This document shows positions 6,671-59,389 of a stretch of DNA of 59,389 nucleotides, piece by piece. Source of the stretch: an uncultured archaeon. Lineage in GTDB: Archaea; EX4484-52; JAADEF01. Location: assembly GCA_964407715.1 (NCBI GenBank), contig CAYOWP010000002.1:53838-113226 (forward strand), in the 5' to 3' direction. A program made the position numbers and the translations under genes. Position 1 is the stretch's first letter, and each line of letters starts with the position of its first letter. The notes beneath the pieces were generated by a model. The model had not been told where the DNA came from, searched no databases, and worked only from the letters and a program-made list of their open reading frames with translations.

Positions 6671-7546
6671 CTATGCTCTTTTGATTTTATAAAGATTTGT
6701 GAGAATCCATACTAAGAGCACCACATTCAAAATTATTGAGAAAAATAATACGATATCCTTAAAAGAGTATGCTTTTTCGTGAGATAAAGTGGTGTGGGTT
6801 AGATTTATATTATGTGAGACATAAAAATATTGATCTTCAGAATCTTTCAAAACAAATAAAAAGTCAGTACAGCAAGGGGTTCTTTCTGGCTTATAAAAGG
6901 AGTAAGTTAAATTAATAAAACTTTGATTTTTATTAAGGATAATCTTCTTTGTAGGCAATATCCATCCACGAGGAGAATTAGGAATGATATAAAGCTCTTT
7001 AAATGAAATGTTGTTTGGTGATTGATTTATCTTAAATTTAAAGATTGCTTTGTTTTTATCTAATACAACATAAGATATATTTATTTTTTCCTTAATTCCT
7101 GTAACGTTTGAATTTGCAATATGTTTTCCTGTTGAATTATAATTGATTAAAGAGATATTTCTAAGTTTTTTTATCTCATTGCAATAATAAAAATATGGAA
7201 TTATCGTTATGTTATTCATATCTTCCTTAGGTAGGAAAGAATAAACTCTTAATATCCCAACACCACCAGGAGGAACATTTACTTTTTCACTCCAGAAATC
7301 TCTTTCTAAATCCTTGGAGATAATCTTTAATCTTAGATATGTATCGCATGTAATAGAGCCTATGTTCTCCCATACAGCTTCTATAGAGATTATATCTCCT
7401 CCAATGGTATAATTGAAATATGGAAAATAGCCTTCTAAGCTCTCTTTTATATTTACCAGAATTGGAATCTGTAAAGAGACAGGTATTATCAAAAGACTTA
7501 TCAATATACTATACAAAAAAACACTTTTAATAGTATCCTTTCTCAT
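6671..7546 (-). CDS. type-I-like surface protein with signal peptide, C-terminal TM anchor and many N-glycosylation sequons
   Basis: N-terminal and C-terminal hydrophobic segments. At least 10 N-x-S/T sequons (NYT, NIT, NIS, NST, NVT, NQS, NLT...). It overlaps the upstream gene by 20 nt. Confidence 0.5.
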   Translation of the reverse strand: MRKDTIKSVFLYSILISLLIIPVSLQIPILVNIKESLEGYFPYFNYTIGGDIISIEAVWENIGSITCDTYLRLKIISKDLERDFWSEKVNVPPGGVGILRVYSFLPKEDMNNITIIPYFYYCNEIKKLRNISLINYNSTGKHIANSNVTGIKEKINISYVVLDKNKAIFKFKINQSPNNISFKELYIIPNSPRGWILPTKKIILNKNQSFINLTYSFYKPERTPCCTDFLFVLKDSEDQYFYVSHNINLTHTTLSHEKAYSFKDIVLFFSIILNVVLLVWILTNLYKIKRA

Positions 7547-7997
7547 ACATCTTCACCATGAACCACTCCGAAATCTTGTTTTTTGGATATCTTATATAAA
7601 TGCTCAGATTACCTGTATAATTTCCTTCTTTTTTAGCATGAAATTTTATATAGATTGATTTTTTAGAATTACTTTCTAACATAAATTTATCTTTTAGAAT
7701 TAAGAAAGGAGTTGCATTTCCATTAACAAAAAGATAACAAATAACTTTATAAGGCAAAGGATTGTTTATATCTAATATTTTTGTAGTATTTGTTTTGTTT
7801 ACAATCATTCTACCAAAATTTAATACATCTAAATCAACAGCCACACCAATTTTTGTTATGTTTCCAGTCTTATTTGTAACTTCTGCTTTTATAATATAAG
7901 AGGTTACATATCTATACTTTGTGCTTATAAAACTGAACATCGAGAAAAACAAAAATAATAAAAAAATGAAAAGCATAATTAAATTCTCTTTTCTCAA
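7527..7997 (-). CDS. secreted/membrane-anchored protein with sequon-rich ectodomain
   Basis: Signal/anchor MLFIFLLFLFFSMFSFI, several N-x-T/S sequons. Operon partner of the flanking genes. Confidence 0.45.
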   Translation of the reverse strand: MRKENLIMLFIFLLFLFFSMFSFISTKYRYVTSYIIKAEVTNKTGNITKIGVAVDLDVLNFGRMIVNKTNTTKILDINNPLPYKVICYLFVNGNATPFLILKDKFMLESNSKKSIYIKFHAKKEGNYTGNLSIYIRYPKNKISEWFMVKMYEKGYY

Positions 7998-8016
7998 TTA
8001 TATCACCTTTACTCCC

Positions 8017-9033
8017 TCACATTTTCCAGTATATGTATAGCGCAATCAATCCCATAATAATAAGTAAGAACCACCATGGAATCTTACGAGGTTTCTTTTC
8101 AATAACCTTTCCTTCAGAAGGCACATATATTTTATCAACTACTTTGATATATCCTGTATATTCTGCCTTATCTGTAATATAATCCACTACTGCATCCACA
8201 TGATAACTACCTGATTTTATTCCTTTCTTATTTCTCCATATAGCGCTTAACACTACAGTCTCACCAGGCTTAACCTTTGAAGATGTTCTCAATGCTATAT
8301 TTCCTGTTCTATACCCATAATCATCATAAACTACAAGATTTATAAGTCTTCCAGTAATTGTAACGGTTCCTTCATTTTTAAAGAGCACATCTACTCGCAC
8401 AGTATTTTTATCTAATCTTTTGGCATCCACATATATTATTCTCCCTTTCCTTATTGCATTCCCAGCAACCTTAAAAACAAATAGAGGTCTCACAATTCCT
8501 ATGGTGGAAATAGAGGTTCCTTGTCCTCTTTCTCTTCCTAATGTTGGTACAAGATTTATGCTCCCTGCATGATACCCGGGCTCTGCATCTTCTGGTATCT
8601 TTACAATAAATCTAAATTCAGAATTATACTTTATTGTTCCTTGCTTGGTGTTTATAGTGTGTACTTCCTTTGGATTTATTAACACTGTACTCTTTGGAAA
8701 TTCCACCCATTCCCTTATGCTTTCTTCTGATGCTTCTGCAGGAATAAAATCATATCCATTAACACTTCTTCTTTTCTCTTTATAATATATAGTTGTATGA
8801 GGATCCCTATACTCCAAAGCTATCTTCATAGGTCTATTTAAGGTTGATGTTATATAAAAAGTGCCTATTATCTCTTGCCCTCTTTTAACCTCTCCTAAAT
8901 CAAGTACTCCTGGTATGGTTCCTATTCCTATAGGAAAAGATATGTTGATTATCAACATGCAAAAAAACATAATTCCAAAAATAAGTTTGATGTATTTTAA
9001 GTTCTGAAGCATAATATTATTATTTGCCTTCAT
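8017..9033 (-). CDS. large surface protein with N-terminal signal-anchor and C-terminal TM segment (IPWWFLLIIMGLIALYIYW)
   Basis: 338 aa, beta-rich ectodomain composition. First gene of a four-gene minus-strand operon (9033 to 6361). Confidence 0.45.
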   Translation of the reverse strand: MKANNNIMLQNLKYIKLIFGIMFFCMLIINISFPIGIGTIPGVLDLGEVKRGQEIIGTFYITSTLNRPMKIALEYRDPHTTIYYKEKRRSVNGYDFIPAEASEESIREWVEFPKSTVLINPKEVHTINTKQGTIKYNSEFRFIVKIPEDAEPGYHAGSINLVPTLGRERGQGTSISTIGIVRPLFVFKVAGNAIRKGRIIYVDAKRLDKNTVRVDVLFKNEGTVTITGRLINLVVYDDYGYRTGNIALRTSSKVKPGETVVLSAIWRNKKGIKSGSYHVDAVVDYITDKAEYTGYIKVVDKIYVPSEGKVIEKKPRKIPWWFLLIIMGLIALYIYWKM

Positions 9034-9088: not shown

Positions 9089-9379
9089 ATGCCAACTGAA
9101 ATAACACAAGAAGAAATTAAAAAAATCTGCGAAATTGCAAGGTTAAATTTAACAGAAGATGAAATTAAAGAGTTTTCCAGAGATTTAATAAATATCCTGA
9201 AATCCTTTAGTGTCATTAATAAGGTCAATACAGATAATGTAAAGCCTACATTTAGACCCATAGATGTTATTAACAAATATAGAGAAGATAAAATAAAAGA
9301 GAGTCTCAATAGAATAGAGGTTATGAAAAACATAAAAAATAAAGAGAAGTTCTATTATAAAGGGCCAAAAGTAGTGTAA
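9089..9379 (+). CDS. gatC: Asp-tRNA(Asn)/Glu-tRNA(Gln) amidotransferase subunit C
   Basis: 96-aa acidic helical protein (EEIKKICEIARLNLTEDEIKEF...) immediately upstream of gatA with a 1-nt gap. Confidence 0.75.
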   Translation: MPTEITQEEIKKICEIARLNLTEDEIKEFSRDLINILKSFSVINKVNTDNVKPTFRPIDVINKYREDKIKESLNRIEVMKNIKNKEKFYYKGPKVV

Positions 9380-9380
9380 G

Positions 9381-10790
9381 GTGAAGATAATGAATGCAAA
9401 AGAATATATACAGAACATCTCAAAAAAAGAAGAGATAGAGGAATATCACGAAAGAGCATATTCTTTTTTTGAGGAAAAAAATAAGGAGTACAATTTTATT
9501 GTAACATTCTCAAATCATGCTCATGGTGATTTGGAAAATACATCTTTAAAAGGACTTATATTTACGGTTAAGGATTGTTTTACAACAAAAAACCTCACAA
9601 CCACAGCAGGGAGCAAGATATTGGAAAACTATGTCCCTCCATTTGATGCTACTGTTGTCAAAAGAATAAAAGAAAATGGAGGATTTATAATCGCAAAAAC
9701 AGCAATGGATGAATTTGGTTTTGGAAGCTTTAGTACTAACTATTTTAGAGGTCCTGTAAGGAATGCTATAGATAAGGAATATGTGGCTGGTGGTAGCAGT
9801 GGCGGAAGTGCTGTTGCTACTGCTTTAGCAAAGTTTCCACATATCTCTATAGCTGAATCAACAGGGGGAAGTATATCAAATCCAGCTGTATTTAATGGAG
9901 TATTTAGCCTTACACCAACATACGGATTGTTATCAAGGTATGGATTGATAGATTATGCCTCTTCCTTAGATAAACCTGGAATAATGGCAAAATGCATAGA
10001 TGATATTGCAATGACCTTAGATATCTTAGCTGGAATTGATATGAATGACTCAACAACTATTGAGAAGCCTGTAGAATCCTTTGAAAAAGAGATTAAAAAA
10101 GAGAACATTAAATCATATAAAATAGCTTATATAGAGAACTATGCGGAGTTAGCAGATGAAAAAATAAAAGAGGCATTTTTTAAAGTAATAGATTTCTTGG
10201 GAGAAGAGGGATTTAATATAGATAAAATAAGGATATCATATACAGAAGAAGCATTAGCAGCATATTATATAATAGCAACTTCAGAAGCCTCTACTAATTT
10301 AGCAAAATTTTGTGGGATGAGATATGGATATGAAAAAAGCGTTGATGGAAAGTATTATAACGATTATTTCTCAGAGGTTAGAGCATATGGGTTTGGAAAA
10401 GAAGCAAAGAGGAGAATATTGCTTGGTACCTTTGCTAGGATGTCTGGATTTAGAGATGCATATTATCTAAAAGCCCAAAAGATTCGTACTTTAGTAATTG
10501 AGGAATTCAAAAAATATTTTAAAAGATACGACATTCTTTTAGCACCTACAATGCCGATCTTTCCAATAAAAATTCAGGATGCTCATAAATTAAGACCGGA
10601 AGAGATATATGCTATGGACATACTAACAGTAGGGATAAATCTTGCCTCCGTGCCCCATGTTAATATTCCAATAAAATCAAAGAACAAATTCCCAGCGGGA
10701 TTACATATCATTGCTGATCATCTAAAAGAGGTAAAAGCATTATCATTTGGAAGGTTTATTGAGAAAGAATATAAAGGCTTATGGAGGTAA
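9381..10790 (+). CDS. gatA: Glu-tRNA(Gln) amidotransferase subunit A (amidase signature family)
   Basis: Amidase signature GGSSGGSAVATALA with the catalytic Ser-cisSer-Lys context. 469 aa, adjacent to gatC. Confidence 0.85.
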   Translation: MKIMNAKEYIQNISKKEEIEEYHERAYSFFEEKNKEYNFIVTFSNHAHGDLENTSLKGLIFTVKDCFTTKNLTTTAGSKILENYVPPFDATVVKRIKENGGFIIAKTAMDEFGFGSFSTNYFRGPVRNAIDKEYVAGGSSGGSAVATALAKFPHISIAESTGGSISNPAVFNGVFSLTPTYGLLSRYGLIDYASSLDKPGIMAKCIDDIAMTLDILAGIDMNDSTTIEKPVESFEKEIKKENIKSYKIAYIENYAELADEKIKEAFFKVIDFLGEEGFNIDKIRISYTEEALAAYYIIATSEASTNLAKFCGMRYGYEKSVDGKYYNDYFSEVRAYGFGKEAKRRILLGTFARMSGFRDAYYLKAQKIRTLVIEEFKKYFKRYDILLAPTMPIFPIKIQDAHKLRPEEIYAMDILTVGINLASVPHVNIPIKSKNKFPAGLHIIADHLKEVKALSFGRFIEKEYKGLWR

Positions 10791-11632: not shown

Positions 11633-12970
11633 ATGCTTGAAAGAATTAAGGAAGCAATTATTAATTTCAGATCACAAAAAAAGATTGATAAAAAAGACCT
11701 TGAGGTTCTTTTAAAGGAAATTCAAAGAGCTCTTATTTTGGCAGATGTCAATGTTAAGATTGTATTGGATATTACTGAAAAAATTAAAAGAAAGATATAT
11801 GAAGAAAAGCCAGAAAACATTCCGCTTAGGGATTATGCCATAAAAGCTATATACGAGGTTCTAACAGATTACTTAGGTAAAGAAAAAAGAGAATTAAATC
11901 TAAAAAGGCAAAGAATATTGGTTATAGGATTGTATGGTGCAGGAAAAACAACTACTGCAGCAAAAATAGCATATTACTTTAAAAAAAGAAACTTATCTGT
12001 TTGTTTGGTTTGTGCTGATATTCATAGACCAGCGGCATATGATCAATTAGAATCATTAGCAAAAAAGATAAATGTCTCCTTTTATGGAGAAAGAAATTCT
12101 AAGAACGTAATAGAGATTATAAAAAATGCGATTGAAAAATGTAAGGAAGATGTTATGATAATAGATTCTGCAGGGCGTGATAGCATAAATGAGGAATTAT
12201 TAAATGAAATAAAAAAGATTTATGAAATTTCAAAACCTGAAGAGGTTTTCTTGGTGATGGGAGGAGATATTGGAAGTAGCGCTAAAGATCTAGTTGAGAA
12301 ATTCAAAGAAACAATTCCAATAACAGGTATTGTGTTGACGAAAATGGATTCCTCTGCTAAAGGAGGTGGTGCATTGGTTGCGAGTTATCTCTCTGGTGCA
12401 AATGTTGTATTTTTAGGTACAGGAGAAAAGATAGAGGATCTTGAATGCTATGATCCAAAGGGATTTGTCTCAAGATTATTAGGATTGGGAGATTTGAATG
12501 CCCTTCTTGAAAGAATAAAGGAGTTGGAGGAGGAATATAAGGAAATTAAGCATTATATTGAAAGAGGAGAATACAATATGTATGTTTTTTACGAGCAGAT
12601 TAGAGCAACACAAAAAATGGGAAGCTTTCAAAAGATTTTGGACATGATTCCTGGAGCAAGCATGATTGGTATAAAGAAGGATGAACTTGAAAATCAAGAA
12701 AGAAAAATTAGGAAATGGAAATATATTATAGATAGCATGACTAAGGAAGAAAGATTGCATCCTGAAATAATTAATGCTTCTCGCATAAAAAGAATTGCAA
12801 GAGGTTCTGGTACAAAGGAGGAAGAGGTGCGTGAGCTTTTAAAGGCATATAAGACAAGCGAAAAAATATTTAGAGGATTAAGAACAGGAAAATTCTTAAA
12901 GGATCCAAGATTAAAGAAATTCTTGAAAGCAATACCTAAGGAAGCCCTTCAGAGCCTTCAAGGATTTTAA
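11633..12970 (+). CDS. srp54: signal recognition particle protein SRP54
   Basis: N domain, G domain with GLYGAGKTTTAAKIA (G1), DSAGR (G3) and TKMD (G4), and a C-terminal Met-rich M domain. Confidence 0.9.
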   Translation: MLERIKEAIINFRSQKKIDKKDLEVLLKEIQRALILADVNVKIVLDITEKIKRKIYEEKPENIPLRDYAIKAIYEVLTDYLGKEKRELNLKRQRILVIGLYGAGKTTTAAKIAYYFKKRNLSVCLVCADIHRPAAYDQLESLAKKINVSFYGERNSKNVIEIIKNAIEKCKEDVMIIDSAGRDSINEELLNEIKKIYEISKPEEVFLVMGGDIGSSAKDLVEKFKETIPITGIVLTKMDSSAKGGGALVASYLSGANVVFLGTGEKIEDLECYDPKGFVSRLLGLGDLNALLERIKELEEEYKEIKHYIERGEYNMYVFYEQIRATQKMGSFQKILDMIPGASMIGIKKDELENQERKIRKWKYIIDSMTKEERLHPEIINASRIKRIARGSGTKEEEVRELLKAYKTSEKIFRGLRTGKFLKDPRLKKFLKAIPKEALQSLQGF

Positions 12971-13565
12971 CCCATTGACATCTTCCATTAACACATTTAC
13001 ATGCGACTTTATATTTTTTTGCATCATAGCAATCAAGCCATTCACATGTTGTGATCAAAGGTTTCTCAAACCTTGATTGACAAATCTCTCCAGAGCAACC
13101 AGATTTTATGCAATCCTTATCGCTATTACATTTTCCATATGTTGACCATCCACAAAACTCTGCTGAAGGTGTTAAAACAAAAGAATTACCATCCTTATCT
13201 AAAAACACAATCTTTGTGTTTTTGGGAACATTGAATATAGTTACTCTCTTTTTGCACATGCATCTACAAAGCTCTCCATATTGCCTTTCTATAATCTTAT
13301 AAGTTGAATCTTCTTTCTCAACCTCTACTTTGACCCCACAACAATTGACCCAAATATCAGCACTTAAAGTTTTATTTTTTTCATCATAGTTTATCAAGAA
13401 TTTTTCAGAACTTGGCATTCCTACTTTGCAATCTTCAACATTATAGTTTATCATCTGGGAATTATCTTTTGTTAAGTAATAAACTCCAAGCAAAAACAAT
13501 ATCACTATTCCCACAACAATCTTTGATTTTATGGTTTTCATTTTATTACCTATTCTATCTCCCAC
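12936..13565 (-). CDS. secreted cysteine-rich protein (signal-anchor plus ~18 Cys)
   Basis: Hydrophobic N-terminus (IVVGIVILFLLGVYY) followed by Cys clusters (CCGVKV, CRCMC, CGWSTYGKCNSDKDCIKSGCSGEICQ, CEWLDC, CKCVNGRCQW). The true start is probably the internal Met (MKTIK...). Confidence 0.45.
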   Translation of the reverse strand: MGDRIGNKMKTIKSKIVVGIVILFLLGVYYLTKDNSQMINYNVEDCKVGMPSSEKFLINYDEKNKTLSADIWVNCCGVKVEVEKEDSTYKIIERQYGELCRCMCKKRVTIFNVPKNTKIVFLDKDGNSFVLTPSAEFCGWSTYGKCNSDKDCIKSGCSGEICQSRFEKPLITTCEWLDCYDAKKYKVACKCVNGRCQWVKILEGSEGLP

Positions 13566-13780
13566 GCATCTTCCAAAACAGAAAAATATCTTATAAGAGA
13601 ATTTACGGCTATTTTAAAAGCCATTATATCCTTTGCTTCTATATAAATCTTTTCATCTTTAAAACATACCTTAGCGCGATTTTTTATCTCCCCTTCAGAG
13701 TGTCTCCTCAGAATATCATAGAAAATTTGCTTTTTATGTTTATCCTTAATGTTAAGAGATATGGAGCATGCTATTTTCAT
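13550..13780 (-). CDS. small protein, Pcc1-like (KEOPS complex subunit) candidate
   Basis: 76 aa. The C-terminal block IEAKDIMAFKIAVNSLIRYFSVLEDAWE resembles the conserved Pcc1 dimerisation helix (ieaeDlsalRaslnsylr). It overlaps glyS by 4 nt. Confidence 0.45.
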   Translation of the reverse strand: MKIACSISLNIKDKHKKQIFYDILRRHSEGEIKNRAKVCFKDEKIYIEAKDIMAFKIAVNSLIRYFSVLEDAWEIE

Positions 13781-15261
13781 TCTTTCACCATATTATTTTT
13801 CAAAAAATCTACCAAATCCCTTATTTTTATTCTATCCTGATGTGTTGTATCTCTATATCTTATTGTAACTGTATCATCCTCCAATGTTTGATAATCTATA
13901 GTAATACAATAAGGAGTGCCTATCTCATCCATGCGTGCATATCTTTTGCCTATACTCCCAGAAGAATCAAAGAAGACACAATCTATTTCTTTTTTCAAAA
14001 AAGCATATACCTCATATGCTTTTTCATAAAGACCATCCTTATTAACTAATGGGAACACAGCAACCTTTATTGGTGCTAAAAATGGTTTAAGTTTAAGATA
14101 GATTCTCTTACCTTCCTTGGTATATGCGCTATCTATAATAGCCATAAATACCCTATCAATGCCTATAGAAGGCTCTATCACATAAGGCACAACCTTTCCT
14201 TTTATGTTTTCATCATATACACACAAATCCTTATTGCTATATTTCATATGCTGTCTTAAATCATAATCTCCTCTATTTGCTATTCCCACTATTTCCTTCC
14301 ATCCAAAATCAAAAGCATATTCAATATCCCAAGTATCCTTAGAATAATGACTCAATTCATCCGGTAGGTGTTGCCTTAATCGAAGTTTCTTAGAAGGAAT
14401 GCCCAAATCTATTAAGAATTTATAGATTTCATATAGCCAATATACATGCCAGTTATCTTTAATAATAGATAGAAGATCTTCCCATGTACCTTCAAAAGGC
14501 TCTTTCATGGCTATTTGATCCTCTTTTGTATAGATTATGATTTTCTCTGAGAGATTTATATCTTTGATATAAGGACATTTGTTCTCCATTTCAGGATGTA
14601 TAAAATATTCTATCTCAGCCAATTCAAATTCCCTGCTCCTAAGCAAAAGATTTCTTGGAGAAATCTCATTTCTATAAACCCTTCCTATCTGCGCTATACC
14701 TAAAGGAAGCTTTTTTCTCATAACCTCAAAGGTATTCCTGAAGTTAATGAAAATGTTCTGTGCTGTTTCTGGTCTAAGATATGCCTCTAAAGCTCTTTCT
14801 TTTTTTACACCTATATAAGTTTTGAACATTAAATTGAAGATTTCTATGCTCCTCAAAGATTCTTTTCCGCATACAGGACATCTTATTTTGTTCTCAACAA
14901 TGATTTTCTCGAGTTCTTCTATAGTTTTACCCTCTACATTAATACCTAAAACTTCTTGAATAAGATGATCAGCTCTAATCTCTGTATTACATTCTGTGCA
15001 TATTACAACAGGATCAAAAAAGTTTTCTACATGACCAGAAGCATACCATGTTTTTGGATGTGTAATAATTGCTCCATCTATACCCACAATATCCTCTCTT
15101 CTAAGCACAAATCTTCTCCAAAAAGCCTCTCTAATGGATCTTTTAATCTCAACACCTCTTGGACCATAATCCCAGAAGCCAGCTAAACACCCGTAGATTT
15201 CTCCAGATGGATATATCATACCTGTCTTCTTACAAAATCTTGCCATCTCCTCTATGTTCAT
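13777..15261 (-). CDS. glyS: glycine--tRNA ligase (archaeal/eukaryal-type class II)
   Basis: Class II motifs (GIAQIGRVYRNEISPR, RSREFELAEIEYF) and an anticodon-binding C-terminus. Start placed at the internal Met (MNIEEMARFCKKTGMIYPSGEIYG) matching the canonical GlyRS N-terminus. The track ORF extends to 15309. Confidence 0.85.
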   Translation of the reverse strand: MNIEEMARFCKKTGMIYPSGEIYGCLAGFWDYGPRGVEIKRSIREAFWRRFVLRREDIVGIDGAIITHPKTWYASGHVENFFDPVVICTECNTEIRADHLIQEVLGINVEGKTIEELEKIIVENKIRCPVCGKESLRSIEIFNLMFKTYIGVKKERALEAYLRPETAQNIFINFRNTFEVMRKKLPLGIAQIGRVYRNEISPRNLLLRSREFELAEIEYFIHPEMENKCPYIKDINLSEKIIIYTKEDQIAMKEPFEGTWEDLLSIIKDNWHVYWLYEIYKFLIDLGIPSKKLRLRQHLPDELSHYSKDTWDIEYAFDFGWKEIVGIANRGDYDLRQHMKYSNKDLCVYDENIKGKVVPYVIEPSIGIDRVFMAIIDSAYTKEGKRIYLKLKPFLAPIKVAVFPLVNKDGLYEKAYEVYAFLKKEIDCVFFDSSGSIGKRYARMDEIGTPYCITIDYQTLEDDTVTIRYRDTTHQDRIKIRDLVDFLKNNMVKE

Positions 15262-15271
15262 GATGAACACC

Positions 15272-16528
15272 TTAAACATAATCAAAAATGTTTCTTTGCT
15301 TTTTTTCATTTTCTTTATTGTTTATTTCTTCTTTATTGATCACGGGAACTCCATACATCCCATCACATCCTGGCTTAATAAAAATTTTTCCTTTTCTATT
15401 TTTAATAATTAACTCCTCTAATTTTTTATCTTCTAATGAAAGATTTGCAAATAATAAAACTTGGTATTCGTTTCCATATTTATTAATGAGATCATTATAT
15501 ACGCTCCATACTTCTTTACTATTAATATTTTTATTATATCTTAAACTTAGTATCTCATGTAGCGGGAGTATCTTATAAAATTTTTGTTGATGTTTTCGAT
15601 TCCTATTGTTTTTGTTGGAGAGATCATATACTCTATGTAACACCCCTAACGTCATCTTTTTTCCGCAATATGGGCAGAGATTATTTAATTTCATAGCCTC
15701 CAATGGATGCATACAGATATTGCACTTTCTATGCCCATCATAATGATATTTCCCATAAGCAGGATCCACCTCTATTGTTTCCAATTTCTTGTTTTTTATT
15801 CTCTCAATGATTTCATCAAATGATAAATCCTTTTCATAAAAGATGTTTGCTTCTCTTCCCAATCTCCATGGCCAATAAGAATGGGCATCAGAATTGGAGA
15901 GAAGAGAGAAAGAGTATGTCTCATCTACTAATGCATTCATATCTGGATCGCTACTTAGTCCTGTTTCAATAGTTGAGATGTATCTTGAATATTTTCCAAA
16001 GCATTCTTTCATACTATCAAATCCTGATTTTGAGCCATAAACCCCAAACCAGGGAGTCCAAGCATGTGCAGGAAAAACAAAGATATCTTTAAAGATGTCT
16101 CTCTCTAAGAGAATTTCCATCATCTCCTCACATGATAGCATAAGCGTTGGCCTTCCATCCTCTTCTAAATTACCATATTTTGAAAAGATTTCATTTAATA
16201 TGTCAACAACATCAAAAGATTTTGCTAAAATCACATTATGGACTTTCCTTATTTTGCCATCCTTTTCAAATACATTGTTAATCTCTGTCTCCAATATATA
16301 TTTCATATCCTCATATTCATAAATTCCATCTCTAATTTCTTTAAGGTTTTCTTTAAGTTCTTTTAACCATAAAGGATGTGTGAAATCTCCAGTACCTAAG
16401 ATAGTAAGCCCTTTAATTTTAGCCCAATAGCTCAATTTCTTAAGAGAGATATCATGAGATGTTGCACGACTATAACGAGAATGTATATGCAAATCCGCTA
16501 TTTCCATCTCAAGTTCATTTGAGGACAT
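15272..16528 (-). CDS. PHP-domain metal-dependent nuclease, endonuclease Q (EndoQ)-like, with zinc ribbon
   Basis: N-terminal PHP signature ADLHIHSRYSRATS, more His/Asp metal ligands, and a zinc ribbon (CNIC...CPYC). This architecture and size match archaeal EndoQ. The assignment is from memory of the family, not a search. Confidence 0.5.
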   Translation of the reverse strand: MSSNELEMEIADLHIHSRYSRATSHDISLKKLSYWAKIKGLTILGTGDFTHPLWLKELKENLKEIRDGIYEYEDMKYILETEINNVFEKDGKIRKVHNVILAKSFDVVDILNEIFSKYGNLEEDGRPTLMLSCEEMMEILLERDIFKDIFVFPAHAWTPWFGVYGSKSGFDSMKECFGKYSRYISTIETGLSSDPDMNALVDETYSFSLLSNSDAHSYWPWRLGREANIFYEKDLSFDEIIERIKNKKLETIEVDPAYGKYHYDGHRKCNICMHPLEAMKLNNLCPYCGKKMTLGVLHRVYDLSNKNNRNRKHQQKFYKILPLHEILSLRYNKNINSKEVWSVYNDLINKYGNEYQVLLFANLSLEDKKLEELIIKNRKGKIFIKPGCDGMYGVPVINKEEINNKENEKKQRNIFDYV

Positions 16529-44956: not shown

Positions 44957-45634
44957 ATGGTTGAGAAGATACCTACAGGGATTCCTGGTCTGGATGAATT
45001 GCTATATGGAGGAATACCAAAAGGTAGCGTAGTCTTGGTTTCTGGAGTGGCGGGATCAGGTAAAACTACTTTTCTATCTCAATTCTGTTGGTATGGGCTT
45101 GTAAGAGGAGAAAGATGTCTTTTCATAACCTTAGAAGAGATGCCGGAAGAGATAAAAGATGACATGTTACAATATGGATGGGATTTCAAAAGATACGAGT
45201 CAGAAGGAACATTTAGAATTGAATATTTTGATCCATTTGAGTTAAGTGATATGAGCCACAGATTAAATGATCTCATTGAAGTTAATAAGTTTGATAGGGT
45301 TGTAATAGATTCTTTATCTTTATTAGGAATGTATATAAAAGATGAGTTTGAAATAAGAAAAAAACTCTTTAAAATAATTCAGAATATAAAGAAATCAGGA
45401 GCAACTGCTTTACTTTCTGGTGAAATTCCTGAACATGAACCAAACAAGCTATCAAGATATGGTGTAGAGGAATTTGTTGTTGATGGAGTAATCGTGCTAT
45501 ATTATCATAGGATGAGTGATGGCAATTTTGGGAATATAGAGATTAGAAAGATGAGAAGGACAAAACATGCTCACGGAACATTTCCAACTTTTATAACCAA
45601 CAAAGGATACGAGGTGAGTACAGAAAAAATATAA
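44957..45634 (+). CDS. single-domain KaiC/RecA-superfamily ATPase (ArlH/FlaH-like)
   Basis: GIPGLDELLYGGIPKGSVVLVSGVAGSGKTTF (KaiC-type Walker A context), Walker B VVIDSLS. 225 aa. Confidence 0.65.
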   Translation: MVEKIPTGIPGLDELLYGGIPKGSVVLVSGVAGSGKTTFLSQFCWYGLVRGERCLFITLEEMPEEIKDDMLQYGWDFKRYESEGTFRIEYFDPFELSDMSHRLNDLIEVNKFDRVVIDSLSLLGMYIKDEFEIRKKLFKIIQNIKKSGATALLSGEIPEHEPNKLSRYGVEEFVVDGVIVLYYHRMSDGNFGNIEIRKMRRTKHAHGTFPTFITNKGYEVSTEKI

Positions 45635-47819: not shown

Positions 47820-48128
47820 TTATTTTTTCTTTTTCTTCTTTTTCTTCTTCTCTATTTTTTCTATTCCTATCTTTTTCACATTAGCCTTATAAATCTCGTC
47901 ACCCATCCAAGATGGCCTGTTTGCAGGTGCTTTAACCTTTGTTCTAGAACCTTCATATATATGTATTTTGTTTGTTCCTCTTTCCCTTAATCTTATTTTC
48001 TTATATCCTCTGTTTGCAGCCTTTAATGCTGCTTGTCTTGGTGTCCTTCCAGTGAATACACCGATTTCATTTCCTTTGTCATCTAGCAATACAAAATACC
48101 TTTTTCCTTTTTTACCTGCCATTTTCAC
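47820..48128 (-). CDS. chromosomal protein MC1 family, with C-terminal poly-lysine tail
   Basis: RYFVLLDDKGNEIGVFTGRTPRQAALKAANRGYKKIRLRERGTNKIHIYEG...NRPSWMGDEI is near-colinear with the MC1 consensus (NFVLRDE-GNE-GVFTGKQPRQAALKAANRG...RLRERGTKK). It ends in 11 consecutive Lys. Confidence 0.8.
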   Translation of the reverse strand: MKMAGKKGKRYFVLLDDKGNEIGVFTGRTPRQAALKAANRGYKKIRLRERGTNKIHIYEGSRTKVKAPANRPSWMGDEIYKANVKKIGIEKIEKKKKKKKKK

Positions 48129-51679: not shown

Positions 51680-51755
51680 ATACTTTATTCTTTCAAGAAT
51701 ATTTAAAAATTTTTTATAAAAATAAAAGAAAAGGAAAGGGATTAATTTTATGCTA

Positions 51756-52748
51756 TCACTCTGTGCTTGCCAATATTGTCAATGTACCTGTTGGCACATT
51801 TCCGTCAGGTACTCCATAAGGTACATGCAATTCTACATCTGCAATTAAACTATCTCCTGGATATATGGTATTGCCATTATTCAAAGTTAATCCTACCTGA
51901 CTACCACCAAATGCAGTACATGAACTTGCTCCTGGTGCATCTGCATTCCATCTAAAGATTCTTATTTTTGAACAGTCATAGTATACGGCAACACAATATG
52001 TAGTACCTCCTATTTCTATACCATTTATAAGACCCCAATCTGAATCTCCTGTAGCGCCAATATTTGCCCATTTAACATTTCCATCAATCAAATCAATTGT
52101 ACCTGTGTTTGTAGTGTTGTGAGGCTCCACTCCTATCACAATATCTGCATCTGTGCCTGTGGAACCATTACAATATGGTTCTGGATCTGTTGAAGTTGTT
52201 GCATTTATCACCCAGAAATATTCATGGTTAGCATCTCTTATTTTTCCAAAACTTACCCAATTGTCTGGTTTCTGGAGATATATGTAATCTGTGCTTGAAT
52301 TGAATTCTACTCTATCAACAAAACTCATGTTTGCACCTGTGTAATCTGTTGGCTTTAACAATAACCAGTTTCCTGAATCATAATTTTGTAAGTTACCTGT
52401 TCCGAACGGATTACTTGAAGGTTGTGATACATTTGCCCATACATATGTTATATCCGTAGAACCCATATTTTCTATCTGTATTTGGCTTAGTGTTACCCCA
52501 TCTTCAGTATCTGTATATTGCGTTAACACAGTTCCAGGATCCGCATTACCCCAATCCATTCCTGCAGGAGTAACATCTATTATTGTTTTATTGTTTACTG
52601 TTACTGTAACCTGAGAGCTATCTGTTGCATCTGCCGTATACGCGTTTGCAATACCATCAAAATCTAAAAATAATCCAGCAATTAAAGCACCTAAAATCGT
52701 CAACACAAAAGCCATTTTACTCATGCTCTTTAATTCTACCCTTTTCAT
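51756..52748 (-). CDS. secreted surface protein, paralogue 1 of a pair
   Basis: Signal peptide (MAFVLTILGALIAGLFL), beta-rich, T/N/G-rich. Shares colinear blocks with 53018-54016 (ITYVWANVSQPSSNPF / ITKIWLNNSYPSSRPF; RIFRWNAD / RIFFVRWNAD; GTLTILAS / GTLTVYAS; TYCVAV / TYCVFI). Confidence 0.5.
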   Translation of the reverse strand: MKRVELKSMSKMAFVLTILGALIAGLFLDFDGIANAYTADATDSSQVTVTVNNKTIIDVTPAGMDWGNADPGTVLTQYTDTEDGVTLSQIQIENMGSTDITYVWANVSQPSSNPFGTGNLQNYDSGNWLLLKPTDYTGANMSFVDRVEFNSSTDYIYLQKPDNWVSFGKIRDANHEYFWVINATTSTDPEPYCNGSTGTDADIVIGVEPHNTTNTGTIDLIDGNVKWANIGATGDSDWGLINGIEIGGTTYCVAVYYDCSKIRIFRWNADAPGASSCTAFGGSQVGLTLNNGNTIYPGDSLIADVELHVPYGVPDGNVPTGTLTILASTE

Positions 52749-52787
52749 TTCTCACCACCCCGTTCAAGCATGCTCATTTTATCATGA

Positions 52788-53018
52788 TTATTCTACCCAC
52801 CACATCATTTTTTTGCTCAATCCAACCCTTGCTGATTTTTCTTCTCCTTTGATAATGCCTTTATCTTTTAGTTTATAGCAATAGGTATTAGCAGTGCTCC
52901 ATGCAATGCCCAATTTTTTGGCTATTTGATATGTTGTTAGCGGTTTTTTCTCCTTCTTTAATATCTCTACAATTAATTTCTCAATGCTTTTCATATTCTC
53001 TACCATCAATCCCACCAT
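52788..53018 (-). CDS. small winged-HTH transcriptional regulator
   Basis: 76 aa. LTTYQIAKKLGIAWSTANTYCYKLKDKGII is a typical HTH recognition-helix pattern. It sits between the two paralogous secreted-protein genes, sharing a stop/start base with the upstream gene. Confidence 0.5.
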   Translation of the reverse strand: MVGLMVENMKSIEKLIVEILKKEKKPLTTYQIAKKLGIAWSTANTYCYKLKDKGIIKGEEKSARVGLSKKMMWWVE

Positions 53019-54016
53019 TATGCTGATGAAGCATATACTGTCAGCGTACCTGTGCTTAGATCACCACTTGCAGTACCAAATGGGACTCTTATATGAACCC
53101 ATGCCTTATAAAACCCTCCTGGTGGTATAGGTTCAGAGTTTATATAGCCACTGTTCATGATGTTGGTGCATATTGTTTGAACTGTTGAATCAGCAAGAAA
53201 ATCAGCATTCCATCTAACAAAGAAGATTCTTGCACCAGTTGCTGGGCAAGACACTGGTATAAATACACAATAAGTCTCACCATCTCCAAAATCAACTTCT
53301 CCTACATCATATTGCTGTCCATCTAATACTCCTCCTCCTGTGTTCAATGTTACTGGAGTAAATGGAATAGGTGTTTGATCCCTTAAATCCACATCACCAG
53401 TACTTGTCACTGTCTTTGGAGATGAAGTATTGATATAGAGCTGTCCATTTGAACAATTGTTTGAATATTGGCTTATATATTCAAAGAAGTATTCAGTACT
53501 ACCATTCCTAAATCTTCCAAAAATTATTCCAATATCGTTTAAATTTGTATTGGGAACTTTTATATATAATGGATCATCTTCCTCATATTCAACCCTATTT
53601 ATAAACATAAAATGACTATCAGGAGCATTTCCAGAGTTGTTAGCTATAACAACAAAGTTTGCTGGATCATAAGCTAAAGGATTAGCTGTGGCAAATGGTC
53701 TTGAGGAAGGATATGAGTTATTTAGCCAAATCTTTGTGATATTTACTGAACCTATATTTTCTATCCATATATTTTCATAGTTATTTGCCTCTGCACTTCC
53801 ATTATATTCTTTTCCAGGCTCAACATTATACCATGATAATGATGAAGGATTGATATCTACCATAGTTTTTTCAGAGACATTCACAAATATGGTGATGGTA
53901 TCATTTGCCTCTGAGATTGGAGCATATACTCTATGGATATTGAATATTGATAAAATAATTACAAAACAAACTATTAAGAACACAATACTTCCTATTTTTG
54001 TTCTTGTATGCTCCAT
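53018..54016 (-). CDS. secreted surface protein, paralogue 2 of a pair
   Basis: N-terminal signal/anchor (IGSIVFLIVCFVIILSIF). Colinear similarity to 51756-52748. Several N-x-S/T sequons. Confidence 0.5.
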   Translation of the reverse strand: MEHTRTKIGSIVFLIVCFVIILSIFNIHRVYAPISEANDTITIFVNVSEKTMVDINPSSLSWYNVEPGKEYNGSAEANNYENIWIENIGSVNITKIWLNNSYPSSRPFATANPLAYDPANFVVIANNSGNAPDSHFMFINRVEYEEDDPLYIKVPNTNLNDIGIIFGRFRNGSTEYFFEYISQYSNNCSNGQLYINTSSPKTVTSTGDVDLRDQTPIPFTPVTLNTGGGVLDGQQYDVGEVDFGDGETYCVFIPVSCPATGARIFFVRWNADFLADSTVQTICTNIMNSGYINSEPIPPGGFYKAWVHIRVPFGTASGDLSTGTLTVYASSA

Positions 54017-54190
54017 GTTTCCTCATCCCCTTCCATTAATCATGAAGGAATATGATGATATGTTGATATTTAGTTATCTCAAAGTTTTGATATATCAATA
54101 TAACAATATAATATAAAATTGGCTTTAGTAGGAATATATAGTTTTTGTAACTATTCAATAGTGAAATAAAAAGGGTATATATTATTTTAC

Positions 54191-55483
54191 GTGAGTAAAT
54201 TAAAGTTTATGTTAGAGAGTACGAAAAGGACATGCTTTATCCTTTTCTTTTTTTGGATAATGATTCTTTTGCCATGCTATAGCTTATATACTAATGTCTC
54301 AGGAAAACTCATTATAGAGGAGAAATTTTATATCAATAATAAGAATAACATAAAAAATATAACTTTTATAATTCCATTTAAACAACACTTTTCCAATTTC
54401 AAAGTTATTTCATGTGTTAATTGCACATGTAAATATAATGGAACACATATAACTGCTTATGTAAATCCTAATACACTTCATGATGGCATAAATATCATCA
54501 ACATAATAGGAAAGATAAGACAAAATCTTATATTACCTTATAAACCAAAAGATTTAGATGAAGTATCTAAATTTACAACCTCTACAAAAAACATTCAGAG
54601 CAATATAGAAAGCATAAAAGAAATATCCTCTTTAATTATGGATTCTTGTGATGGAGATAGAAGATGTTTTATAATAAGTTCTGTTAAGTGGGTAAATGAA
54701 TATCTAATATATGATACAAGATATAGTGATAGAAATTATGATACTCGATGGATATTAAAAAATAAGAGAGGAGTATGTGCAGAATATACAACACTTTTTA
54801 TAAGTTTGATGAGAAGCCAAGGAATTCCATCACGATATGTATCTGTTCTCTCTTATGATATTAAAAGAAAAGAACTAATACCACATGCATATGCAGAGGT
54901 ATATATAGATGGAGTATGGTATCCAGTTGATGTTTTATGGAAGCAGATTGGATATGCTGATGCATTGCACATATATAGATACTACTCCAATGACAATCAT
55001 GTTGAAAGCAATATTAACATCTCTTACTTGGATGAGATTGATTTTAAGTGGATTGATGAAAAGATAAACCTCATGAATGTAGGTATTGGGATTAACAACA
55101 GCTACTTTAACATTGCTAATACTTCCTTAAATATAGAGCCAAAAAAGATTGCTAATATATCCTTAAATATATCAAAACTCAAAGAAGTGAAAGATGCGTG
55201 CGTTTATATAAAGATAAATCCATGTGTTGGTGGCAACATTTCAGTTGCTCCTAAAGAGGATATTGCATGCGAAAATCTTAATTTTTTTATAATTTCATAT
55301 GATGAAGACATTATTTGCCCGATTACCATTCAATATGATACAAAATTTTCAGTTATAAATATGACTTCCTCAACACAATTGTTTGAGATAAATGCATCTC
55401 AATCAGAAGGTTTTATTTCTTCATTAATAGATTTGTTAAGGAAGTTGTTTAACATGATAATTTCTCTTATTAACTCACTGTGA
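54191..55483 (+). CDS. secreted transglutaminase-like (cysteine protease fold) domain protein
   Basis: Signal-anchor (CFILFFFWIMILLPCYSLY). Transglutaminase-core triad context GVCAEYTTLFISLMRSQGIPSRYVS (Cys) ... HAYAEVYIDGVWYPVD (His, Asp). Confidence 0.6.
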   Translation: MSKLKFMLESTKRTCFILFFFWIMILLPCYSLYTNVSGKLIIEEKFYINNKNNIKNITFIIPFKQHFSNFKVISCVNCTCKYNGTHITAYVNPNTLHDGINIINIIGKIRQNLILPYKPKDLDEVSKFTTSTKNIQSNIESIKEISSLIMDSCDGDRRCFIISSVKWVNEYLIYDTRYSDRNYDTRWILKNKRGVCAEYTTLFISLMRSQGIPSRYVSVLSYDIKRKELIPHAYAEVYIDGVWYPVDVLWKQIGYADALHIYRYYSNDNHVESNINISYLDEIDFKWIDEKINLMNVGIGINNSYFNIANTSLNIEPKKIANISLNISKLKEVKDACVYIKINPCVGGNISVAPKEDIACENLNFFIISYDEDIICPITIQYDTKFSVINMTSSTQLFEINASQSEGFISSLIDLLRKLFNMIISLINSL

Positions 55484-57374: not shown

Positions 57375-57707
57375 ATGAGAACTAAAACAAAAAAAGCAGT
57401 ATCTATAACTATCTCGGCTGTGCTTCTTGTTGTGTTTGTTACTGCTATAGCTGCACTATATAGCGGATGGTTCAAATCATTCATAAGGAGCATCTCAGAA
57501 TCAGCAGAAAAACAGGACTTACCTGTTAACTGCGATAAAGTAAAAGTCTCCATCCAAAAAGTAACTTATGGAGTAGTAGACAAATTAGAGAGCTATATCA
57601 ACAAAACTTTTCTCCATGACAAAGCATATGAGGAAAGTACTTTCAATCTAACCCTAAACAATAGCAATGTTGAAGTCACCATAGATTTAACACCCATACC
57701 TTATTAA
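57375..57707 (+). CDS. small pilin-like protein (class III-type signal peptide candidate)
   Basis: MRTKTKKA|VSITISAVLLVVFVTAIAALYSG: basic N-terminus, Ala at -1, ~22-aa hydrophobic helix, then a short beta-rich domain. No Glu at +5. Confidence 0.4.
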   Translation: MRTKTKKAVSITISAVLLVVFVTAIAALYSGWFKSFIRSISESAEKQDLPVNCDKVKVSIQKVTYGVVDKLESYINKTFLHDKAYEESTFNLTLNNSNVEVTIDLTPIPY

Positions 57708-57716
57708 GGTGATAAC

Positions 57717-59389
57717 ATGAGATATCTATTGTTCATCGCGATGCTTTTACTCATACTTTTCACATTACCTTTTTCCTATGCAGCCACCTCTCTCAACTCC
57801 TGCACCACAATCTCATCTCCAGGAGTTTACTATCTCACCTCTGACATCACTGACTCAAGCAGTACTTGCTTTACTATCTCCTCTTCTGACGTAATTTTGG
57901 ATTGCCAAGGACATGTGATTGATGGTACTCAAGCCTCTGGTAGTTATGGCATATATGCCAGTGGCTCCTTAAGCAACATCACCATAAGAAACTGCAAAAT
58001 CCAAGAGTTTTATTATGGAATTTACTTCTATAATGGTGTTCATGATAGCAAGATAGAGAATGTTGTGAGTAATAGCAACAATGGATATGGCATCCGGCTT
58101 AATGGCGGTTCCTCCAACACATTAACAAACATCACTACTGAGAATAACAATTGGGGTGGCATCCTTCTTGATTCCTCATCCTCCAACACCTTAACAAACA
58201 TCACTGCTAAGAATAATCACGACGACGGTATTCATCTCTATTCCTCTTCTTCCAACACCTTAACAAACATCACTGCCAATAATAACGGTGAGGATGGCAT
58301 TTATCTCTCTTCCTCTTCCTCCAACATAATAGCAAATTCCACAATAAAATACAATGCTCAATATGGTATTTATCTTACTTATTCAGATAACAACAACATC
58401 ACATCCACAACAATCACATTCAATTCTCAAGGTATTTACTTTAATGGCAACTCAGACAACAACATCTTCAAAAACAATACCATACTCAAAAACAAATTTA
58501 ATGATATAAGAATAACATCCAGTGATAATAACAATCTCTTTTATAACAATCTATTATCTACAGCTAAATATAAAATCTCAGATGAATCATCAACAACAAA
58601 ATGGAACTATACGAATATAGGAAATCACTGGCTAGATTATGATGCTGAACATGAAGGATGCTATGATACTAACAATGACAATATATGTGATGATCCTTAT
58701 GCTATCAATGATAAATATGATTACTATCCAATCTATACAGGAACACCTCAAAAAACATTTACTTGCTCATCATGTAGCGAGTGTACATCTATAATACAAA
58801 ACAATGCAACTCCCAATGATATAGTGCAATTAACTGTTGATATTATTGATTCCACCACATCTAAATGCATATATTTTGATCCTTATACATATCCAGAAAT
58901 AATATTTGATTGTCAAAACCATTTAATAGATGGAGATGACAATGTTGATTATGGAATTTATATTGATTATACTCAAGGCATTACAATCAAAAACTGTCAA
59001 TTAACAGATTGGGATTCTGCAAATATCTACTTAACCAATGTTAAATATAATACCTTAAAGAATATAATCACTAAAAGTAGTCCAGATCGTGGCATCTATC
59101 TCCGTTCCTCTTCCTTCAACACATTAACAAACATCACTGCTAAGAATAACAATTGGGATGGCATTTTTCTCTATTCCTCTTCCAACTATAACACATTAAC
59201 CAACATCACTGCCAATAATAATAACTGTGGCATCTGGCTTCATTCCTCTTCCAACTATAACACATTAACCAACATCACTGCCAATAATAACAATCGGGAT
59301 GGCATCTATCTCCTTTCCTCTTCCTCCAACACATTAACAAACATCACTGCCAATAGTAACTCTCGTTATGGCATCTATCTTGATTCCTC
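57717..59389 (+). CDS. secreted right-handed parallel beta-helix repeat protein (adhesin/NosD-pectate-lyase-like), 3'-truncated by window end
   Basis: ATG at 57717. Signal peptide MRYLLFIAMLLLILFTLPFSYA, then repeated 22-aa units (SSNTLTNITANNN-xDGIYL-SSS) typical of PbH1 beta-helix repeats. The frame stays open to the end of the window. Confidence 0.65.
   Translation, partial: MRYLLFIAMLLLILFTLPFSYAATSLNSCTTISSPGVYYLTSDITDSSSTCFTISSSDVILDCQGHVIDGTQASGSYGIYASGSLSNITIRNCKIQEFYYGIYFYNGVHDSKIENVVSNSNNGYGIRLNGGSSNTLTNITTENNNWGGILLDSSSSNTLTNITAKNNHDDGIHLYSSSSNTLTNITANNNGEDGIYLSSSSSNIIANSTIKYNAQYGIYLTYSDNNNITSTTITFNSQGIYFNGNSDNNIFKNNTILKNKFNDIRITSSDNNNLFYNNLLSTAKYKISDESSTTKWNYTNIGNHWLDYDAEHEGCYDTNNDNICDDPYAINDKYDYYPIYTGTPQKTFTCSSCSECTSIIQNNATPNDIVQLTVDIIDSTTSKCIYFDPYTYPEIIFDCQNHLIDGDDNVDYGIYIDYTQGITIKNCQLTDWDSANIYLTNVKYNTLKNIITKSSPDRGIYLRSSSFNTLTNITAKNNNWDGIFLYSSSNYNTLTNITANNNNCGIWLHSSSNYNTLTNITANNNNRDGIYLLSSSSNTLTNITANSNSRYGIYLDS
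58108..58330 (+). repeat. intragenic ~66-nt tandem DNA repeats (block 1) encoding beta-helix rungs
   Basis: Units CCTCCAACAC(A/C)TTAACAAACATCACTGC(T/C)AA(G/T)AATAA...GGCAT...ATCTC..TTCCTCTTC repeated ~3.5 times. Confidence 0.7.
59095..59389 (+). repeat. intragenic ~66-69-nt tandem DNA repeats (block 2), continuing past the window end
   Basis: At least 4.5 copies of TCCTCTTCC(AACTAT)AACACATTAAC(A/C)AACATCACTGCCAATAATAA...GGCATCT..CT. Confidence 0.7.

Follow-up and report, generated by a model that had tools for sequence, protein, structure and literature searches.

The genome of an uncultured archaeon carries two related genes for secreted proteins, A and B, on either side of a gene for a small winged helix-turn-helix (wHTH) protein, and the question raised by this locus is which function a pair of proteins belonging to no named family may serve. 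The genes are located in a stretch of 59,389 nucleotides of contig CAYOWP010000002.1 (GenBank assembly GCA_964407715.1), which in its full length is referred to as the window. A first-pass annotation, made from the sequence alone, regarded them as a duplicated, locally regulated adhesin or S-layer-like module within a surface-protein island, and considered that a secreted transglutaminase-like protein encoded next to them could cross-link or process their products. Here A and B are treated as members of one protein family, designated P, in which B represents the alpha type and A the beta type, with regard to relationship and distribution, export and predicted structure, regulation and accompanying genes. 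The locus comprises the following genes:

51756-52748, minus strand: A, beta-type subunit, 330 aa (open reading frame (ORF) list; family profile E=1.6e-135)
52788-53018, minus strand: wHTH gene (hth), 76 aa, pI 9.7, candidate autoregulator (Pfam HTH_24)
53018-54016, minus strand: B, alpha-type subunit, 332 aa (ORF list; family profile E=1.5e-93)
54191-55483, plus strand: transglutaminase-core gene, 430 aa, divergent from B (Pfam PF01841)

Two subfamilies in fixed order

A and B could be aligned colinearly over 315 aa with 30% identity and E=3e-36, far beyond chance, and are clear paralogues, as had been stated. The idea of a local duplication was not borne out. In a context set of 47 non-redundant loci with 99 P copies, the copies were almost always arranged in co-oriented tandem sets, and clustering by identity separated two subfamilies, of which that of B (alpha, 26 members) consisted solely of genes in first position and that of A (beta, 24 members) solely of genes in second position or following the wHTH gene. 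Many genomes possess two couples, one in which the wHTH gene separates the partners and one in which it does not, and in some lineages a single P gene is present. Since the subfamilies occupy fixed positions, with alpha preceding beta across many lineages, A and B are not the product of a local duplication but two ancient subfamilies that form a conserved alpha/beta couple, which in turn argues for a heteromeric function.

Mean identity of P proteins amounted to 42.5% compared with 46.6% for neighbouring genes (164 locus pairs), and P ranked above several of these neighbours. Judged from these alignments, P appears to evolve about as fast as its neighbours, unlike fast-diversifying adhesins.

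Family membership and distribution

Searches with A and B, as single sequences and as profiles, against Pfam, NCBIfam and PDB as well as a Pfam scan of each member yielded nothing above threshold, so that the absence of a named family, presumed before, was upheld by profile searches; no known intracellular enzyme family was matched in any of the three databases, and no match of P to viral structures was obtained. A word-indexed search of 5.8 billion proteins retrieved 31 P relatives, all unnamed, and an exhaustive profile search of 1.84 billion representatives (50% identity) retrieved 333 members, 302 of them with E<=1e-10; single-domain proteins of 300-380 aa account for almost all of the 150 matches listed out of these 333. 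Residues E93, N94, W104, E148, R171, E176, H210, W267, N268 and D270 are invariant or nearly so. One metagenomic member, P0123 (672 aa), carries an N-terminal LamG/concanavalin-like lectin domain fused to a single P domain; it had been considered as a natural P-P fusion, and hence as a proxy for the subunit interface, and was rejected as such, and a 460-aa ORF of locus L044, likewise considered as a P-P fusion, proved to be an overlap in ORF calling. No description of this gene cluster or of any P-like DPANN protein was found in the full-text literature.

Labelled members belong almost entirely to DPANN archaea. A scan of species-representative genomes produced 43 P loci labelled Nanobdellati, "Nanohalarchaeota", Aenigmatarchaeota, Altiarchaeota, Micrarchaeota and Woesearchaeota, together with two from one metagenome-assembled genome labelled Methanosarcinales. 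The window itself, with a GC content of ~31%, contains an archaeal RNase P RNA and is therefore archaeal, and its assignment to a DPANN-type organism, as suggested previously, is supported. A locus identical to that of the window was met with in the sequencing run SRR7051321. Two outliers were noticed. One is a 1.03-Mb contig (L054) with acidic proteins of the halophile type, on which the P family occurs together with its usual neighbours. The other is a solitary acidic P gene of Natronococcus sp. A-GB1, a haloarchaeon available in culture (WP_278293401.1, L052 10001-11125); it lies in a mobile-looking region among genes for integrase, TnpB/Cas12f-like, primase-polymerase, SHOCT and DUF932 proteins, and may represent a mobile element or may have been acquired horizontally from a nanohaloarchaeal partner. 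A viral or proviral origin of P was nevertheless rejected, as no relatives were detected among IMG/VR viral contigs and the chromosomal context is conserved, even though the Natronococcus copy looks mobile.

Export, glycosylation and predicted structure

Topology analysis assigned to A and B one N-terminal hydrophobic segment each and no C-terminal anchor. Cleavage is predicted after VYA32 in B (mature protein ~33 kDa, pI 4.2, nine sequons) and after ANA36 in A (~31.5 kDa, pI 4.05, seven sequons, four Cys). Among 31 members the cleavage column is conserved, with Ala (24/31) or Gly (4/31) at position -1 and A, V, S or T at position -3 in 28/31; this AxA-type column follows the hydrophobic region and represents a site of signal peptidase I. 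The signal peptides claimed for both paralogues are thereby corroborated. A class III (prepilin) signal peptide, which it had been proposed to look for, was not supported, the pattern ([KR][GAS] before an uncharged hydrophobic helix) being present in 9/31 members and in neither A nor B.

N-x-S/T sequons, a further feature singled out for inspection, proved to be enriched, with a mean of 10.1 per mature P protein versus 4.5 in shuffled sequence; their density in A is about three times that of the window proteome, and two sequon columns, corresponding to residues 99 and 106 of A, are kept in >93% of the members. Cys193, Cys252 and Cys259 are conserved in 72-96% of members. These features strongly indicate, where they do not directly demonstrate, that alpha and beta are Sec-exported, processed by signal peptidase I, N-glycosylated, stabilised by disulfides and anchorless.

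The composition of A and B is rich in T, N, G and D and poor in K and E. An AlphaFold2 model of A, built on a 32-sequence alignment, is all-beta and confident (pLDDT 88, pTM 0.79), and that of B, although of lower confidence (pLDDT 76), displays the same strand order, in agreement with the T/N/G-rich, beta-rich ectodomains described before. In both monomer models the first 10-14 residues past the cleavage site are unpaired and of low confidence, which would be compatible with a donor strand but is not diagnostic of one. No structural neighbour of the P fold was found.

Operon structure and regulator

On the minus strand the genes follow the order B, hth, A. The stop codon of B overlaps the start of hth (TAATG, 53016-53020), by which the wHTH gene is translationally coupled to B; the first-pass annotation had this reversed, with the stop of the HTH gene overlapping the upstream start. 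Between the stop of hth and A lies a 39-nt spacer with a strong GGTGGTGA ribosome-binding site. The following control elements belong to the operon:

54017-54190, no strand: divergent promoter region between the B-hth-A operon and the transglutaminase gene, with TATA-like box and palindromes
~54134-54141, minus strand: TATA-like box in this region
54050-54069 and 54092-54101, no strand: operator-like palindromes in the intergenic region between B and the transglutaminase gene
51700-51755, minus strand: T-rich tract CCCTTTCCTTTTCTTTTATTTTTAT after A, read from the sequence

The T-rich tract is likely the archaeal transcription stop of the operon; a bacterial-type promoter and terminator scan of the window returned no terminator, such a scan being uninformative for an archaeon.

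The 76-aa protein exceeds the Pfam winged-helix thresholds (HTH_24, 29.2 bits, cutoff 21.9; HTH_11, 26.6 bits, cutoff 25), and its description as an HTH protein between co-oriented paralogues holds, with the gene embedded in their operon. Its subfamily was left unassigned because NCBIfam matches to Lrs14, Sso10a and Sta1 remained below threshold. Orthologues exist in 21/47 loci, always co-oriented with P and located either between alpha and beta or directly after the pair, with spacers that are usually tiny or replaced by overlaps.

In alpha promoters the TATA box is followed by variants of the palindrome ATATC(N0-2)GATAT, such as AATATCTCGATAT and TTTAATATATCGATATA, and 15 of 21 promoters contain at least one site. 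Site density reaches 5.5/kb in alpha promoters versus 1.56/kb in all non-ORF DNA (~1.2/kb after removal of P-gene promoters) and 0.33/kb overall, figures that have to be read with the reservation that the motif was first spotted by eye, that the promoters are evolutionarily related and that the genomes are AT-rich. An unbiased count of 8-mers singled out TCGATATA, present in 8/19 alpha promoters versus 5/125 controls (p=1.8e-5), and TTTAATAT, present in 9/19 versus 5/125 (p=2.3e-6). The sole cluster of three sites of this type in the 59-kb window is the 54017-54190 region. On these grounds the palindrome is a good candidate for the operator.

Companion genes

Clustering of the genes of all fetched loci revealed a recurrent supercluster around P. 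Divergent from the P-P pair runs an operon of three genes, designated u337, u173 and u277, followed by genes for a MinD/ParA-type ATPase and a Big-domain protein of ~830 aa (BIG833) with CarboxypepD_reg and MG4 domains. Beside P-hth-P arrangements, genes for MoxR, DUF58 and VWA proteins and for a multi-transmembrane (multi-TM) HExxH protein are found, and in some lineages giant surface proteins; the MoxR-DUF58-VWA genes flank P cassettes in 15-18 loci. The neighbour families of u337, u173 and u277 occur in 17 loci each, with u337 divergent from P-P pairs; the phyletic spread of u337 equals that of P, and all its members are unnamed proteins. Judged from gene context, the conserved partners of P would be genes outside the interval covered by the first-pass annotation, namely u337-u173-u277 and, elsewhere, the ATPase, Big-domain and MoxR-DUF58-VWA genes. 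In the window the three-gene operon comprises:

8017-9033, minus strand: u337, first gene of the companion operon, signal peptide, Ig-like ectodomain, C-terminal TM anchor
7527-7997, minus strand: u173, N-terminally anchored ASH/PapD-like Ig-domain protein
6671-7546, minus strand: u277, signal peptide, beta-rich ectodomain, 11 sequons, C-terminal TM anchor

Here the operon (6671-9033) is uncoupled from P, being located 43 kb off the cassette and adjoining gatC/gatA (9089-10790), and no members of the ParA, BIG833, MoxR, DUF58 or VWA families were found in the window. The match of u173 to Cep192_D4/ASH and choice-of-anchor-D domains is weak and below threshold. That u337, u277 and u173 might be divergent paralogues of P was rejected at the sequence level (hhalign probabilities <8%).

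Several further genes of the supercluster deserve mention. A KaiC-type ATPase is encoded 6 kb from the cassette (44957-45634, plus strand, Pfam E=3e-59) and has homologues within the P supercluster in L008, L027 and L044. On the halophilic contig L054, which holds the whole supercluster, the MoxR ATPase gene (12612-15392) contains an intein (Intein_splicing and LAGLIDADG). Family u220 (L017 16491-17171; L044 1-593), multi-TM proteins with an HExxH motif (HELFH/HELSH) encoded downstream of MoxR-DUF58-VWA in 10 loci, may represent a membrane metalloprotease.

The transglutaminase

The protein encoded divergently from B matched Pfam PF01841 with 70.3 bits (cutoff 23, E=2e-19), retains the triad motifs GVC196AEY, H232AYAEVY and PVD247 (Cys196/His232/Asp247) and possesses an N-terminal hydrophobic segment and 12 sequons, so that a secreted transglutaminase-fold protein with a Cys-His-Asp core was correctly recognised; by these features it is probably exported. 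Database gene calls for it differ in start and give lengths of 430, 424 and 407 aa. Its link to the paralogues as a functional partner is weak, for a transglutaminase gene neighbours P in 2/47 loci; besides the window this is L016, in which the gene for a Transglut_core protein of 227 aa (6940-8074, minus strand, E=1.3e-10) lies beside the hth orthologue and divergent from the P-P pair. On this context the enzyme was rejected as a conserved component of the P system and is probably incidental or peripheral to it. Bacterial MoxR-DUF58-transglutaminase operons exist, such as the bifidobacterial PFNA cluster with its surface FN3 protein (PMC8430577), and a loose kinship of the enzyme with the MoxR-DUF58-VWA module is therefore conceivable, unsupported as it is as a core feature.

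Genomic surroundings in the window

Since the cassette is flanked by housekeeping genes (FEN1-like, DNA methylase, SPFH, XPD helicase, MC1), it constitutes no island in the sense of horizontal transfer, and the label of a surface-protein island was not apt. The MC1-family chromatin protein (47820-48128, minus strand, Pfam E=7e-36) ends in a run of nine lysines, and the transglutaminase ORF and the convergent ORF of an XPD/Rad3-type helicase share 85 nt at their 3' ends (55399-55483). Close to the window end lies a gene for a protein of 110 aa whose N-terminus resembles that of type IV pilins (MRTKTKKA/VSITISAVLLVVFV; 57375-57707, plus strand). The next gene encodes a large secreted protein with right-handed beta-helix/NosD repeats (57717-59389, plus strand, Pfam Beta_helix E=1.4e-65) and runs past the end of the window; further surface genes are thus present on this side. 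The beta-helix protein was considered as a counterpart of the giant proteins beside other P cassettes, to which it showed no similarity. Another secreted protein may be encoded at 12936-13565 (minus strand), where the product, 209 aa long and rich in cysteine, has a hydrophobic segment at its N-terminus and matches nothing in Pfam.

Comparison with known surface systems

Operons for archaeal surface proteins that include a local regulator are familiar, and several known systems invite comparison. PF12389 (Peptidase_M73), the profile of TasA/camelysin fibre subunits, gave no match at E<=1 for A and B and none at E<=0.05 for 32 members; structural similarity to the TasA/TapA fibres of Bacillus subtilis and the homologous bundling pili of Pyrobaculum calidifontis (AbpA/AbpB operon) stayed at noise level, and P differs from them in a mature domain of ~295 aa and in strict alpha/beta pairing. 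Parallels in organisation exist all the same, as operons of archaeal bundling pili contain a wHTH gene and genes for multi-TM proteins, and TasA as well as threads combine a major subunit with a paralogous partner, comparable to alpha and beta. The subunit of Sulfolobus threads, Saci_0406, is processed by signal peptidase I and N-glycosylated; its structurally similar paralogue Saci_0405, the cap or nucleator, is co-transcribed with it from one promoter, and threads are, like P, independent of the type IV pilus machinery. Haloarchaeal tafi (TafA/TafC/TafE) consist of several paralogous Ig-like subunits, to which P may be likened; their laminin-G-like subunit calls to mind the LamG-P fusion P0123, which recalls fimbrial tip subunits, and their TM-anchored terminator (TafF anchor) may be compared with u337 and u277, yet the latter are not P-like by profile comparison, and tafi employ the Tat pathway and a dedicated peptidase (TafD) whereas P carries signals for Sec and signal peptidase I.

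With Bat-type MoxR-DUF58-VWA and MoxR-DUF58-transglutaminase operons the P system shares genes that flank it elsewhere, the window holding the transglutaminase-core protein only. SlaA and SlaB of Sulfolobales are two co-encoded Ig-rich glycoproteins, of which the first makes up an outer layer and the second a stalk in the membrane, whereas neither A nor B is membrane-anchored, and no sequence match to any solved structure was obtained; SlaA is about four times larger than A or B. New in the present case are a subunit family without neighbour in sequence or fold, a fixed alpha/beta logic and a recurrent set of partners.

Discussion

The explanation proposed here, which we regard as a serious candidate falling slightly short of an even chance, is that alpha and beta are obligate partners of an extracellular, N-glycosylated and disulfide-stabilised assembly, present mainly in DPANN archaea, which is anchored by Ig-like proteins and controlled by a dedicated autoregulator. 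Both proteins would be exported via Sec, cut by signal peptidase I at the conserved AxA site and released without anchor, to co-assemble outside the cell into a heteromeric surface structure, for which a filament or matrix-type polymer is favoured because of the parallels with archaeal bundling pili, threads, TasA and tafi. The proteins u337, u173 and u277 might hold or nucleate this assembly at the membrane. The ATATC(N0-2)GATAT palindromes that closely follow the alpha TATA box would serve as binding sites for the wHTH protein, which would thereby set the expression of B-hth-A, and possibly also that of the divergent transglutaminase gene. More speculative, and doubtful at present, is the wider view that the P pair, u337-u173-u277 and, elsewhere, the MinD/ParA ATPase, the Big-domain protein and MoxR-DUF58-VWA constitute an unrecognised, largely DPANN-specific extracellular assembly system, with a subunit fold unlike that of type IV pilins, TasA-like fibres, threads and known S-layer proteins. 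Such a system could serve in attachment to host cells, as a filament or a bridge.

Alternatively, A and B might supply the outer canopy of an S-layer or sheath with two components, in which a lattice of alpha/beta heterodimers would be tethered by u337 and u277 in the manner of SlaA/SlaB. Anchorless acidic glycoproteins encoded together with anchored Ig-like partners would suit such a layer, as would the conserved rather than hypervariable nature of P, and published S-layer proteins of DPANN archaea are themselves candidates, unrelated between lineages. However, those candidates (NEQ300, Micr_00292, MJ1_0160) are described as proteins of multiple Ig folds, whereas P is a single domain of ~300 aa, a dedicated repressor within the operon and two alpha/beta pairs per genome would be unusual for a constitutive S-layer, and some lineages manage with a single P gene, which makes this alternative rather unlikely. 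With no anchor on A or B, near-invariant polar and aromatic residues, the LamG-lectin fusion and weak hits to GH123 glycosidases in their Ig-like N-domains, one may also think of soluble secreted heterodimeric binding proteins or enzymes, engaged in glycan binding or hydrolysis for scavenging or for remodelling of the host envelope. We judge this quite unlikely, as no catalytic family was matched in Pfam, NCBIfam or PDB, the similarity to GH123 is confined to a non-catalytic Ig domain, and strict pairing as well as anchored Ig-like neighbours fit an assembly better.

Of the adhesin or S-layer-like module postulated by the first-pass annotation, export and glycoprotein features stood and the duplication did not; such a module as a whole is possible, though its evolutionary rate is unlike that of fast-diversifying adhesins. 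In its full form, with the products of a duplicated adhesin cross-linked or processed by the neighbouring transglutaminase, we hold this model to be very improbable: the enzyme is predicted to be exported, has an intact triad and shares a promoter region with operator-like sites with B, a similar gene lies beside hth and divergent from the P pair in L016, and bacterial operons join MoxR and DUF58 with a transglutaminase (PMC8430577) while MoxR-DUF58-VWA flanks P elsewhere, but the enzyme accompanies P in 2/47 loci, the pair is ancient without local duplication, and P does not evolve as fast as host-specific adhesins usually do. Least credible appears a bi-component membrane-active effector, pore-forming or fusogenic, directed against the host membrane and comparable to the tandem ~300-aa S/F leukocidin pairs. 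P genes do encode tandem, all-beta secreted paralogues of ~300 aa with ~30% identity, prevail in symbiotic DPANN lineages and gave weak matches to domains of class II fusion proteins; those matches are at noise level, however, no leukocidin, aerolysin or MACPF match was obtained, heavy glycosylation and disulfides suit a static structure better, and P is also present in one haloarchaeon and in genomes labelled Altiarchaeota. Altiarchaeota are not known to be symbionts.

Little is known of the ways in which DPANN archaea construct their surfaces and attach to hosts, and the majority of their conserved genes are without annotation. With the present analysis, what had been a set of "hypothetical proteins" becomes a defined target, consisting of a family with a confident fold prediction, a regulator, a candidate operator and recurrent partners. 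Should the alpha/beta pair form a filament or lattice, it would represent a new class of archaeal surface structure; should it form neither, it would still be a useful marker module for the comparative genomics of DPANN archaea.

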